From Frankiales bacterium (GTDB taxonomy: Bacteria; Actinomycetota; Actinomycetes; Mycobacteriales; SCTD01), in assembly GCA_025465145.1 (NCBI GenBank), contig JAODNS010000167.1, positions 2,621 to 66,620 of the forward strand: a stretch of DNA of 64,000 nucleotides. Reading direction: 5' to 3'. Below, piece after piece: positions 12,428 to 15,621 of this stretch. The position numbers were made by a program, and so were the translations under genes. The first letter of the stretch is position 1. The number at the start of each line of letters is the position of its first letter. A model generated the notes under the pieces. The model had not been told where the DNA came from. It searched no databases and saw nothing but the letters and a program-made list of their open reading frames with translations.

Positions 12428-13272
12428 CGGGCCAGCGCCACGAGCAGGTGCGTGCCGCCGTCGAGGGCGCCCGGCTCGCGGCAGCACTCCTCCTCGTTGT
12501 CGAGGAACCTGGCCCACAGCGCCGGGTCCGCCTCCAGCTCCGCCAGCGCCTCGGGATCCGCGAGCGAGCCCCAGTTGCTGGCCAGCGCGTCCAGCACCCG
12601 GCCGCCCTGCGCGTGCACGAGCGCGACCAGCTCGGCGTGCCGGAACATCCTGCACAGGTGCTGCCCGCTCCCCGGCGGCTGCGTCTCCCGCAGGTCGCCC
12701 GTGTGCAGGATCCGGTCTGTGGCGTCGGGTCCGTAGCTCCTCATCAGCCCGACCACGCCGGGCAGGAACTGCCGGTACGCACCCAGCGTCGACATGACGG
12801 ACGCGAGCACCGGGCCGCCCGGCGCGACCACCCGCAGCAGCTCGCCGACGGCGTCGCCGGCGCGGTCGAACGCGTACGAGATCGGTCCTCCGTACGCCAC
12901 CGCGGCGTCGAACTCCGCTGTGCCGTAGGCGTTCAGGTCGCACACGTCGGCCAGCGCCCGCGCCTCCACCGCCTGCTCGGCGCCGGCCTCCGCGACGTGC
13001 GCGGCGTTGAGCTCGAGCTGCACGGGGCTCAGGTCGGTGACGACCACCCGGGCTCCCAATGCGGCCAGCTCGACGGTGAACCGACCGGGGCCGGCGCCCA
13101 CCTCCAGCACGCGCATGCCCGGCCGGACGAAGCGTGCGAGCAGCCGCCGGTGCAGCTCGAAGGACACGCGGCCCGCGGGGCTCTCCGCGAGCCGCTCCCA
13201 CTCGCCCTCGCCGAACGCGTCGAAGTAGCTGCGCACCGCCTCGACGGAGGCCTCGTGGTCGTGGCTGGCCAT
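12412..13272 (-). CDS. class I SAM-dependent methyltransferase
   Basis: The internal start MASHDHEASVEAVRSYFD at 13272 is followed by the SAM-binding motif RVLEVGAGPGRFT. The 784-aa ORF in the track is a read-through composite. Confidence 0.8.
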   Translation of the reverse strand: MASHDHEASVEAVRSYFDAFGEGEWERLAESPAGRVSFELHRRLLARFVRPGMRVLEVGAGPGRFTVELAALGARVVVTDLSPVQLELNAAHVAEAGAEQAVEARALADVCDLNAYGTAEFDAAVAYGGPISYAFDRAGDAVGELLRVVAPGGPVLASVMSTLGAYRQFLPGVVGLMRSYGPDATDRILHTGDLRETQPPGSGQHLCRMFRHAELVALVHAQGGRVLDALASNWGSLADPEALAELEADPALWARFLDNEEECCREPGALDGGTHLLVALARYAVR

Positions 13273-13637
13273 CAGCGGAGGAAGGCGTCGTCGGGCAGGT
13301 CGCACGCGCGGGCTGCGTCGCGGGCGTCGGTCCGCGCCTTTCCGGCGAGGTCTCTCGCGTCCGTCCCCCGCTCGAGCGCCTGGTCGATCGCGTGCAGCCG
13401 CTGGTGCAGCCGAACGACGGACTCGTGCAGCGCGGGTGAGGCGCGCTGCGTCACCCGCGGGTCGAGCCTGGTCCCGACCTGCTGCGCCTGCTCGCGGGTC
13501 GGGACGCCGCTCAGGCCCGTGCCCACCAGGTCCGCCTTCAGCGCGGTGCACAGCTCGGCGCTGCCGACCTCGTCCTCGCCCAGCCCGCAGCCGGAGAGCA
13601 GCACGGCGACGAGCAGGAGACCGGCACGGGACAGCAC
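13272..13637 (-). CDS. putative lipoprotein
   Basis: A 121-aa ORF. The signal peptide ends in a lipobox-like sequence (LLLVAVLLSGC). Confidence 0.6.
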   Translation of the reverse strand: MLSRAGLLLVAVLLSGCGLGEDEVGSAELCTALKADLVGTGLSGVPTREQAQQVGTRLDPRVTQRASPALHESVVRLHQRLHAIDQALERGTDARDLAGKARTDARDAARACDLPDDAFLR

Positions 13638-13661: not shown

Positions 13662-14588
13662 TCAGATGCGCTCGACCCGGTCGGCCTGCGGGCCGCGGTC
13701 GCTGCTGCGCACCTTGTAGCGGACGCGGTCGCCCTTCTGCAGCGGCTCGGCGCCGCCGAGCACGGAGATGTGCACGAACAGGTCGGCGCCGCCGGCGTCG
13801 GGCGTGATGAAGCCGAAGCCGCGCTCCGCGTCGTAGCGGGCGACCACACCCTCTCCCGCGCGGGCAGGGGCGTCCGGCTTCGCCGGTGCCGAGGCCCCGG
13901 TGTCCTCGGGCACCGCGCTGTGCACGAGGTGCAGGTCGCGCGCCTGCGGGCCCTTGTCGGACTGGACCACGTCGAACATCACGCGGTCCCCCTCCGTCAG
14001 CCAGGTGAGGCCTTCCGCGAGAGCGCGCACGTGCACGAACACGTCCTCGCCGCCGGCGTCGGGGGTGACGAAGCCGAAGCCCTTGCTCTCGTCGAACCAC
14101 GAGACCGTGCCGTCGGCGCCGTCGTCCGTGGACGCGGTGGCCTCGGCGGCAGCACCGGGACCGAGCGGGACGAGGTGCTCCGCCTGCGGACCGCGCTCGC
14201 CCTCGCCGATGAGGAAGGCCACCCGCTGTCCGGCCGTCACGACGCCACCGGTGACGATGGCCGAGCTGTGCACGAAAACCTCCGAGCCGCCGCCGTCGGG
14301 CAGCGCGAAGCCGTACCCCTTGGCCGGCTCGTACCAGGAGATGCTGCCGAGAACGCCGACCGGCGTGTCCGCCGCGACCTCGCCGGTTGTGCGGACGCGA
14401 CGCGCCTGGGGGCCGCGGTCGCCCTCGCCGAGCTCGTACTCCACGACCTGGCCCTCGCGCAGCAGCCGCGCGCGGCCGTCGCCGGTGATCTCCGACGCGT
14501 GCACGAACAGGTCGGCGCTGCCGTCCTCCGGCGCGAGGAAGCCGAAGCCCCGCTCTGGGTCGAACCAGCGGACGGTTCCCTGCGGCAC
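13662..14588 (-). CDS. cold-shock-domain protein with four tandem CSDs
   Basis: A GTG at 14586-14588 (GGAG lies 8 nt upstream) gives [17 protein letters not shown]. There are four units of about 65 aa, each with GFGF/GYGF (RNP1-like) and [LV]FVH (RNP2-like): [63 protein letters not shown] and [21 protein letters not shown]. Confidence 0.85.
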
Positions 14589-14697
14589 GGGATGCTCCAA
14601 GTCGGGAGTACGGGTACGGCTCGAGTCTGGCCGATGCTCCGGCAGCAGACGAGGCCCCTCCCGCCGGAGCGGGAAGAGTTCTGTCCTGCGGGCTCCG

Positions 14698-15098
14698 GGT
14701 GGAGCTGAGGGGACTCGAACCCCTGGCCCCCACACTCTGCCAGACAGGCCTGTACAGGCGCACCAACAGTAGTTTTCGTTAGTTCCCAGGCGGTTTGGTT
14801 CGGGCGGGTGGGGTCTATCGAGGCCCAATTGACCGTGGATCGGGCACGCAGCGGGCAGGGCACGTTGGCCCTCACGACCCAGGTGGATCTCCCTGCGACC
14901 ACCACCCTGCCGCCGGCTCGACCTCCTGCGAAGGGCCGTTCGCAGGAGCGAGCGACGGCGTAAGCCCGAACCGGCACCGTGGCGGCGCGCGCTAGCTCTC
15001 GACGTACGAAAGCACGCCCGCCCGAACGGGGGCAGTCCGGACCCGCGGCGAAACGGCGCTGCGGGCGAGAGGGCTTGCGGAGACAGCGCGTCGGCCCC
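14698..15098 (-). ncRNA. tmRNA-like RNA locus (candidate divergent or decayed ssrA)
   Basis: The minus-strand 3' end reads GGGGGCC-AGGGG-UUCGAGU-CCCCU-CAGCUCC-ACC. That is a T-arm plus a tmRNA-type acceptor 3' strand. A possible 5' strand, GGGGCCG, lies about 400 nt upstream with one mismatch. The gene-free interval is tmRNA-sized. I found no canonical tag ORF ending LAA-stop and no UUCGAC element, and smpB is not adjacent. Confidence 0.4.
14825..14865. repeat. Copy 1 of a conserved ~41-nt element (31-nt core, 29/31 identical to 28325-28355)
   Basis: The core gtggatcgggcacgcagcgggcagggcacgt (14835-14865) compares with gtggatcggccacgcagcgggcacggcacgt (28325-28355). Both are in the same orientation and both are preceded by a ccaa(a)tt segment. 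Confidence 0.6.
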
Positions 15099-15117
15099 GC
15101 CAAGGGTAGGAGTCCAG

Positions 15118-15621
15118 CTAGCTGGCCTCGTCGCACGGCGCGGCGCCAGCGGTCTCGCTGTGACCAGCCATCTGCTGCAGCGCAAGAGTGATGGCGCGGA
15201 GGTCCACGCCGTCGAGGTGGTCGAATATGCGCCGCCGCACGCTGGCCAGGTGTGCTGGCCAGGCATCTTGAAGGCGGCGGTGCCCCCGTTCGGTCAGGAC
15301 TGCGTACCAGCCGCGGCCGTCATCGGCTGACCGCTCGCGTGTGACCAGACCGTCGCGGTCGAGGTTGCTGACGATGCGTGTCATGCCAGACAGCGATATG
15401 GCCGCCGCACCGGCGAGTTCGCTCATCCGCAGCCGACAGCCTGGGGCTTCGGACAGGTGCATGAGCACGAAGTACTCGCTCTGGGCCAGCTGCTTCTCTC
15501 GAAGGAGGTCGGCATCAAGAGCACGCGGGACGGCGATGAGAGCTCGCGCGAAAGCGCGAATGAACGCCTCCTCCGTGCGGCTCAACGGGCGGCGCGTCGT
15601 CGCGGTCCGCCTTGTCGCCAT
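15118..15621 (-). CDS. MarR-family transcriptional regulator
   Basis: A 167-aa ORF. The sequence [69 protein letters not shown] is a MarR winged helix. Confidence 0.85.

Follow-up and report, generated by a model that had tools for sequence, protein, structure and literature searches.

Four tandem cold-shock domains on one chain: a gene of a Frankiales bacterium and the widespread actinomycete family to which it belongs

Bacterial cold-shock proteins (Csps) are stated in reviews to be single-domain proteins "as a rule" (PMC7825780). Does a gene found in a Frankiales bacterium really code for four cold-shock domains (CSDs) on one uninterrupted chain and, if so, is it an isolated oddity or one member of a family with a function of its own? 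The DNA analysed is a stretch of 64,000 nucleotides (nt) from contig JAODNS010000167.1 of assembly GCA_025465145.1 (positions 2,621 to 66,620 of the forward strand). This whole stretch is called the window hereafter, and all coordinates, including those gathered in Table 1, refer to it unless another locus (designated L and a number) is named.

The reading frame of the four-CSD gene was considered at the outset. It runs on the minus strand from a GTG codon (14588-14586) to a TGA stop (13664-13662), that is, through 308 codons plus stop without a break, and the product is a 308-amino acid (aa) protein of ~32.3 kDa with a pI of ~4.7 and a net charge of ~−19. The start is placed at the GTG because in three orthologues (L007, L011 and L012) a stop codon lies 0-3 codons before the homologous V/M-P-Q-G-T-V, and because a GGAG is found 6-9 nt 5' of the start codon in all 17 orthologous loci. 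For the same reasons the longer open reading frame (ORF) that figures in a mechanical list (13662..15266) was rejected as the gene. The GC content at third codon positions (GC3) is 94% in surrounding DNA of 70.6% GC, as expected for a real gene. Comparison with the orthologues gave ratios of non-synonymous to synonymous substitution (dN/dS) of 0.17-0.35; the gene is under purifying selection.

Four separate stretches of the protein match the Pfam CSD profile (PF00313), with E = 8.6e-81 and a score of 266 bits (cut-off 27). A CSD hidden Markov model (HMM) built within this analysis, and used for the domain coordinates of Table 1, recognizes the same number of domains with per-domain E values from 3e-28 to 2.4e-32. 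The NCBIfam models for CspE, CspA, CspC and CspD each match the protein in four stretches as well, and no NCBIfam model dedicated to a four-CSD family was found. A single-domain Csp used as tblastn query hit the same four segments of this gene and detected no further CSD elsewhere in the 64 kb of the window (Escherichia coli CspA, Mycobacterium tuberculosis CspA and Bacillus subtilis CspB served as references for tblastn, domain identities, trees and the residue table). Within the protein the domains share 36-52% identity. Across orthologues, mean pairwise identity is 75, 79, 68 and 79% for CSDs 1 to 4 and 51, 45 and 33% for linkers 1 to 3. The first-pass annotation of this DNA, made from the letters alone, had described a single uninterrupted ORF with four complete CSDs, each carrying RNP1-like and RNP2-like cores, and this description holds: the frame contains exactly the four units that had been quoted, and the profile search retrieves all of them.

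A search of 5.8 billion proteins yielded 1364 clusters at E ≤ 1e-20 among 8000 candidates scored. The best 120 of these clusters are 296-375 aa long (mostly 300-330) and 72-99% identical to the window protein over the full length, and exactly four CSDs are present in 120 out of 120. Those with a name are called 'CspA family cold shock protein', 'cold shock protein' or 'hypothetical protein [Frankiales bacterium]'. In a scan of GTDB with one genome per species, in which the genera found are a lower bound, full-length orthologues with 62-74% identity came from at least three actinomycete orders among the matches listed: Pseudonocardiales (Actinomycetospora, Amycolatopsis, Actinokineospora and Pseudonocardia), Micromonosporales (Dactylosporangium) and Micrococcales (Ornithinibacter, Terrabacter, Promicromonospora, Isoptericola, Luteimicrobium, Cellulomonas fimi and Myceligenerans). 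The same list includes one strain labelled Streptomyces and several metagenome-assembled genomes (MAGs); the organism of the window is not represented among these genomes. A neighbour-joining tree of the individual domains from 15 genomes clusters them by position (domain 1 with domain 1, domain 2 with domain 2, and so on); inside each cluster the branching matches taxonomy. Each domain of the window protein groups with its positional equivalents from the 14 remaining four-CSD orthologues, and the window protein itself lies with an uncultured Actinomycetota MAG and the Pseudonocardiales/Micromonosporales branch. Because the domains cluster by position and branch according to taxonomy, the four-domain array is older than the divergence of these orders, with largely vertical inheritance. 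Positional orthologues in three orders, together with purifying selection, also support the earlier statement that the units have diverged from each other and are neither a recent duplication nor an assembly artefact.

The family is thus widespread, old and conserved among actinomycetes, under a generic database label. The rarity implied by the first-pass annotation proved to be wrong: the architecture is frequent among Actinomycetes, and public databases already contain it. The same annotation had added that its proposal would fall if the architecture proved common and already characterized; common it is, and no characterization was found in the literature. Full-text searches returned no paper on bacterial proteins that have at least three CSDs.

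Tandem arrays of CSDs are not confined to this family. A 451-aa protein of Klenkia marina (L015, 6001-7359) has five CSDs that cluster with each other, and represents an independent, more recent tandem expansion. A protein designated P0134 (361 aa) carries four nearly identical CSDs which, as in the Klenkia case, indicate internal duplication; in P0134 and in two other four-CSD proteins, P0125 and P0133, the domains have no one-to-one match to positions 1-4 of the family. A protein library clustered at 50% identity contained proteins with 2-10 CSDs, and several of its four-CSD members are separate expansions. On plasmid pCBA1220-02 of Halarchaeum sp. CBA1220 (L084, 1975-3954), a 659-aa 'cold shock domain-containing protein' aligns over 99% of the query with 31% identity; haloarchaea therefore also have multi-CSD arrays. 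Taken together, the Klenkia, the other four-CSD, the 2-10-CSD and the Halarchaeum proteins show that tandem CSD arrays arose many times. Four further candidates from Phycisphaerae, Holophagaceae and Mesorhizobium (L018, L019, L020 and L024) were rejected as fusions, being separate adjacent csp genes with stop codons after 67-91 aa; tblastn alone can thus miscount multi-CSD architectures.

Structure prediction was in keeping with the domain count. An AlphaFold2 model built from a 31-sequence alignment predicts four five-stranded antiparallel beta-barrels of the oligonucleotide/oligosaccharide-binding (OB) fold at a predicted local distance difference test score (pLDDT) of ~80-94, with pLDDT below 50 in the linkers (residues 72-76, 145-155 and 227-242). 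In this model the four barrels are strung like beads on flexible linkers. The best multi-domain matches of Foldseek in the PDB were Drosophila Unr fragments, namely CSD789 (7zhh), CSD456 (6y6e) and CSD12 (6y6m), at 18-21% identity. Single barrels were superposed on bacterial Csps, including RNA-bound B. subtilis CspB (BsCspB; 3pf4), with a template modelling (TM) score of ~0.9 and a root mean square deviation (rmsd) of ~1 Å. CSD 1 matches Corynebacterium pseudotuberculosis CspA (5o6f) with E = 7.9e-23 in sequence and with 59% identity and 1.6 Å rmsd in Foldseek. In the PDB sequence search every match was a single-domain chain, so no structure of a bacterial multi-CSD protein has been solved.

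The residues expected to contact nucleic acid were compared among 15 orthologues, using BsCspB numbering. An RNP1 of the form [KR]-G-[FY]-G-F-[ILVA] is present in all domains (RGFGFL, KGYGFA, KGFGFV and RGFGFI, respectively) and is invariant across the 15 orthologues. In RNP2 (V-F-V-H-[FY]), the four domains retain F-V-H; throughout the family, the aromatic fifth residue gives way to Ala (domain 1), Ser (domain 2), Val (domain 3) and Val/Ile (domain 4). Common to all domains are Phe/Tyr15, Phe17, Phe27, His29, the basic residues at 13 and 56, and Gln59; CSD 1 retains Trp8, Phe15, Phe17, Phe27 and His29. Trp8 is found in domains 1-3 and is replaced by an invariant Arg in domain 4, and Phe15 is changed to Tyr in domain 2. 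Since each position has a fixed signature (Arg8 in domain 4, Tyr15 in domain 2 and the residue after FVH), the four positions are not interchangeable, which suggests different nucleotide preferences or roles for the individual domains. The window protein shows all four family signatures: linker 1 is 11 aa long, domain 2 contains WYEPxKGYGF, DGADG precedes domain 3 and domain 4 carries VARYD.

Some characters of the segments go beyond the binding face. Linker 1 is 11 aa long in 15 of 15 orthologues. In CSD 2 the loop preceding strand 4 is three residues shorter, and an invariant H-x-x-P-L comes after the domain. Linker 2 varies between 9 and 18 aa among orthologues, and its conserved D-G-A-D-G end leads to CSD 3, the most acidic domain (charge ~−7). 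Linker 3 ranges from 23 to 34 aa and ends in a conserved P-x-R-x-G-E-G; it is Ala/Pro-rich in the window protein and Arg/Gly-rich in the Micrococcales orthologues. CSD 4 is the sole near-neutral domain and shares with CSD 2 the highest conservation (79%). As a whole, the three linkers are rich in Ala, Pro, Asp and Gly.

According to a review, a CSD uses its RNP1/RNP2 face to bind 6-7 nt of single-stranded RNA (ssRNA) or DNA (ssDNA) and discriminates little between sequences or sugars; the same review presents CSDE1, with its multiple CSDs, as a multivalent binder (PMC7825780). Because each barrel keeps RNP1, F-V-H, the basic residues 13 and 56, and Gln59, we consider it probable that the product is a soluble, acidic 32-kDa four-barrel protein, belonging to an old, vertically inherited actinomycete family, which acts as a multivalent ssRNA binder. 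The analysis establishes the architecture, its conservation and selection, the predicted fold and the lack of a conserved context, whereas nucleic-acid binding, RNA as the ligand, cooperativity and the physiological role are inferred. Each domain would hold a short single-stranded stretch, perhaps 4-7 nt, and having four of them on one chain would, by avidity, increase both affinity and residence time. One molecule could then hold some tens of nucleotides in unfolded form or connect single-stranded segments that lie apart, and the domains, given their fixed differences by position, would have roles that are not equivalent. The outcome could be RNA-chaperone, antitermination, mRNA-stability or translation effects, as demonstrated for Csps with one domain. 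Cooperative remodelling of long RNAs, as put forward in the first-pass annotation, is plausible.

Several observations weigh against this reading. None of the four domains has the equivalents of Phe30 and of the loop residue Phe38, two of the seven canonical aromatic contacts, and at position 10 Asn gives way to Asp in domains 1, 3 and 4 and to Glu in domain 2. With these changes and the strong acidity of the protein as a whole, each domain may bind less tightly than classical Csps do. The predicted template modelling score (pTM) of the AlphaFold2 model is 0.33, and its inter-domain arrangement carries no confidence. Lastly, our literature searches found no experimental data for any member of the four-CSD family.

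How does the protein compare with known systems? Like the single CSD of CspA, CspB or CspE, every one of its units is a complete CSD that has both RNP1 and RNP2, and domain 1 shares the opening M-P-Q-G-T-V with the C. pseudotuberculosis CspA mentioned above; CSD 1 is also the most CspA-like of the four. However, single-domain Csps consist of one CSD of ~67 aa, whereas the window protein links four in 308 aa, and classical Csps have Phe30, Phe38, Asn10 and Trp8, of which the window protein has lost the first three everywhere and Trp8 in domain 4. Multi-CSD 'fusion' Csps have been noted in Rhizobiaceae, and CSD fusions were recorded in 195 of 979 genomes (PMC11512079). The sole characterized bacterial precedent that we found is provided by CspC and CspD of Caulobacter crescentus, likewise bacterial and made of tandem CSDs only. 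These two-CSD proteins are induced in stationary phase, not by cold, and are needed for stationary-phase survival (PMC4830024 and reference 12 therein). They differ from the window family by having two domains instead of four and by belonging to another phylum. Two alphaproteobacterial two-CSD loci (L021 and L022) display 31-35% identity and a Gly-rich N-terminal region, and are not orthologous.

At the level of architecture the comparison with UNR/CSDE1, made in the first-pass annotation, is apt, Unr fragments being the top multi-domain Foldseek matches: both are tandem CSD arrays, and UNR/CSDE1 is a multivalent ssRNA binder. The differences are nevertheless considerable. UNR/CSDE1 is eukaryotic, has ~800 aa and interleaves five canonical CSDs with four non-canonical ones (PMC7383231, PMC7825780); the window protein has four CSDs only. 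In place of intervening domains, the four-CSD family has predicted disordered linkers (11-23 aa here and up to 34 aa in orthologues) that are too short for a domain. Each domain of the window protein is closer to bacterial Csps than to CSDE1; it is not orthologous to eukaryotic CSDE1, and the two arrays arose independently. Ribosomal protein S1 and other multi-S1 proteins offer an analogy only, in that repeated OB-fold barrels, from a nucleic-acid-binding superfamily shared with the CSDs, hold mRNA single-stranded on one chain. S1 does not belong to the CSD family, and the window protein lacks the ribosome-binding N-terminal domain; weak matches were seen to Pfam S1 and OB_RNB and, in Foldseek, to the multi-OB protein 3go5.

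The surroundings of the gene were searched for partners and signals (Table 1). Upstream, the MarR regulator gene is followed by a gene for a flavin mononucleotide (FMN) reductase. Downstream, a lipoprotein-like ORF begins 24 nt past the four-CSD stop and is itself followed by an S-adenosylmethionine (SAM) methyltransferase gene. The lipoprotein-like ORF may be co-transcribed with the four-CSD gene here; it has no Pfam match and lies next to no orthologue. No conserved neighbour was found: an all-against-all ORF comparison of 17 loci shares only the four-CSD gene itself, and two relatives (~77-80% identity) have unrelated neighbours (one has guaA, the other genes for a melibiase and for a BRCT protein), on which grounds a conserved operon or partner gene was rejected. 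No copy of the gene was present in the phage collection or on actinobacterial plasmids. With no conserved neighbours, no such mobile copies and only a generic PADLOC match, it looks like a stand-alone chromosomal gene and not like a defence or mobile module.

A 14-nt motif, GTCRGNGASACTGG, precedes the start codon by ~40-50 nt in orthologues of three actinomycete orders. Eight orthologous loci contain one exact copy each, and the pattern is absent elsewhere in a set of 82 loci that includes more than 60 single-domain csp loci. The copy in the window, ATCGGCCAGACTCG, is degenerate and not significant on its own, since with three mismatches allowed the motif is no more frequent in the window than expected by chance. 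The actinobacterial −10 hexamer is TAnnnT, and the core of the motif, GA[GC]ACT, has its A2 and T6. The motif may therefore be a candidate −10 promoter region or an operator; if it is a promoter, a short leader of ~30 nt is implied. Scans with sigma-70 and intrinsic-terminator consensus sequences gave no match, a result that is uninformative for high-GC actinomycetes. Classical CspA-family proteins have a single CSD of ~65-70 aa and are cold-induced by way of a long, structured 5' untranslated region; here Rfam detected neither a cspA thermoregulator nor another RNA family upstream of the four-CSD gene, even in permissive mode, apart from a tmRNA fragment, and the conserved motif is only ~40-50 nt away from the start codon.

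That fragment bears on another earlier claim, namely that the gene lies beside a tmRNA-like locus. A 3' fragment resembling tmRNA is indeed there, ~110 nt upstream of the gene; only its T-arm and acceptor 3' end align well. An intact tmRNA was rejected, since neither ARAGORN nor Rfam at gathering score finds a tRNA or tmRNA anywhere in the window. The last ~40 nt (14698-14737) match 269 actinophage records at 90-99% identity, and the matching attachment (att) core is located terminally, beside integrases, in many prophages of Mycobacterium and Gordonia. In the Mycobacterium prophage prophiGD12-2 the match is at the record end, next to a tyrosine integrase gene, and occurs in two copies in the record. 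Such an arrangement is that of an att core, and the window fragment is therefore probably a relic att-type copy of a tmRNA 3' end left by site-specific integration. No second copy was found in the window, and no integrase is adjacent. In Actinomycetospora soli (L002, 5826-5910) a tRNA-Leu(GAG) lies ~90 nt upstream of the four-CSD orthologue, in a position similar to that of the window fragment; a link between the two was rejected since the upstream regions do not align. The other orthologues have no tRNA or tmRNA within 6 kb. Elsewhere in the window, the sole Rfam match at gathering score is ASdes (RF01781; 26728-26795, minus strand; 65.6 bits), an M. tuberculosis antisense small RNA to desaturase genes; the match agrees with the window being of actinobacterial origin.

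Table 1. Positions of the four-CSD gene, of its parts and of flanking elements (window coordinates), and of exact motif copies (coordinates of the loci named)
Feature	Position	Strand	Remarks
Four-CSD protein gene, complete	13662..14588	-	Translation, four Pfam CSD matches, orthologue-fixed start, GC3, dN/dS
CSD 1 (aa 3-68)	14385..14582	-	RGFGF, LFVH-A
Linker 1 (aa 69-79)	14352..14384	-	Partly conserved T-G-x-x-A-A-x-x-x-x-G-V-L-G
CSD 2 (aa 80-142)	14163..14351	-	W-Y-E-P-x-K-G-Y-G-F, FVH-S
Linker 2 (aa 143-158)	14115..14162	-	16 aa here; Ala/Gly/Pro-rich
CSD 3 (aa 159-222)	13923..14114	-	KGFGF, VFVH-V
Linker 3 (aa 223-245)	13854..13922	-	23 aa here; most variable segment
CSD 4 (aa 246-308)	13665..13853	-	V-A-R-Y-D, RGFGFI, LFVH
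Shine-Dalgarno-like GGAG	14595..14598	-	Read from sequence; ~6-7 nt before GTG start
Degenerate motif copy ATCGGCCAGACTCG	14622..14635	-	3 mismatches to GTCRGNGASACTGG
tmRNA 3'-end-like fragment	14697-14826 (best part 14698-14737)	-	Permissive Rfam, 18.9 bits against gathering score 47
MarR regulator	15118-15621	-	Upstream neighbour of four-CSD gene
121-aa lipoprotein-like ORF	13272-13637	-	LLSGC signal, own GGGAGGA ribosome-binding site
GTCRGNGASACTGG, exact copy	L003 440-453		
GTCRGNGASACTGG, exact copy	L004 5958-5971		
GTCRGNGASACTGG, exact copy	L005 86-99		
GTCRGNGASACTGG, exact copy	L007 5952-5965		
GTCRGNGASACTGG, exact copy	L008 1653-1666		
GTCRGNGASACTGG, exact copy	L014 5958-5971		
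GTCRGNGASACTGG, exact copy	L016 5995-6008		
GTCRGNGASACTGG, exact copy	L081 4953-4966		

Other explanations of the protein were weighed as well. It could be, although we regard this as unlikely, mainly an ssDNA-directed factor of the CspD kind, active in replication, at the nucleoid or in stationary phase, in which four linked CSDs replace the oligomerization of CspD. The CspD models of NCBIfam do match all four domains (TIGR02381, 190 bits), but they are outscored by the CspE, CspA and CspC models. CSDs are not reliably selective between ssDNA and ssRNA (PMC7825780), and the two ligands are not separable by sequence. The stationary-phase rather than cold induction of the Caulobacter two-CSD proteins (PMC4830024) would suit such a factor, as would a leader that seems short and the failure of Rfam to find a cspA-type thermosensor RNA; on the other hand, no replication or repair genes are linked at the loci examined. 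A decidedly improbable variant supposes that only some barrels bind and that the others, especially domain 4, are 'pseudo' RNA-binding domains which hold the active ones in place or bring in a protein partner. The invariant Trp-to-Arg change of domain 4 and the loss of aromatics at 30 and 38 speak for it. The high conservation of domains 4 and 2 (79%) is compatible with a constrained protein/RNA interface, and a precedent exists in the non-canonical CSDs of Unr (PMC7383231). Domain 4, however, keeps RGFGFI, LFVH, Arg13, Arg56 and Gln59 and obtains a full CSD score (E = 7.7e-30), and the linkers (11-34 aa), predicted to be disordered, conceal no extra domains. The four non-equivalent CSDs might also jointly read a composite single-stranded element. 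In that case the family would not be a general chaperone but would act after transcription, throughout the actinomycetes, as a sequence-selective regulator and thus as a bacterial counterpart of UNR or S1, perhaps regulating itself through GTCRGNGASACTGG as RNA leader or melted promoter DNA, with the Arg of domain 4 as a new recognition mode; we hold this reading to be a long shot, of low probability.

Membership of an anti-phage or conflict system, with the protein as effector or sensor (CSDs being associated with retron Se72/type V, TOTE and CoCoNuT systems), appears at first sight to be favoured by profile scores: NCBIfam retron_eff_Se72 reaches 141.9 bits against a cut-off of 82, PADLOC CSD_V gives E = 6e-43 and Pfam S1CSD-TOTE-2 gives 30.4 bits. 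These scores, however, are generic CSD matches summed over four domains. A prophage att-like fragment does lie 110 nt upstream, but the neighbours code for MarR, FMN reductase, lipoprotein and methyltransferase, none is conserved in the 17 loci, and no reverse transcriptase, NTPase or McrBC is nearby. Moreover, the domain tree tracks taxonomy, as in vertical inheritance, and phage or actinobacterial plasmid copies are missing from the collections searched. With only the generic CSD_V match from PADLOC and an unrelated context, defence-system membership was rejected as very improbable. It is also conceivable that four adjacent csp genes were fused by a sequencing or assembly error, or that the gene is a decaying pseudogene. 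Apart from the distant tblastn matches that turned out to be separate adjacent genes (L018-L020 and L024), nothing positive speaks for it. The same uninterrupted four-domain ORF is found in the 120 of 120 best matches and in 15 independent assemblies, the linker ends are conserved and selection is purifying, so that the probability left to this explanation is next to nil.

Multivalent ssRNA binding by a chain of four barrels is thus the reading that we prefer. At the level of the family, several actinomycete orders have long kept a fixed four-domain array, and among their members are genera that can be cultivated and are genetically tractable. The family would provide a simple bacterial system for tandem-CSD cooperation on RNA, which has so far been studied almost only in eukaryotic UNR/CSDE1. 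The family merits a model and a name of its own, in place of 'CspA family cold shock protein' or 'hypothetical protein', and it adds a candidate global RNA-binding protein to those of Actinomycetes.

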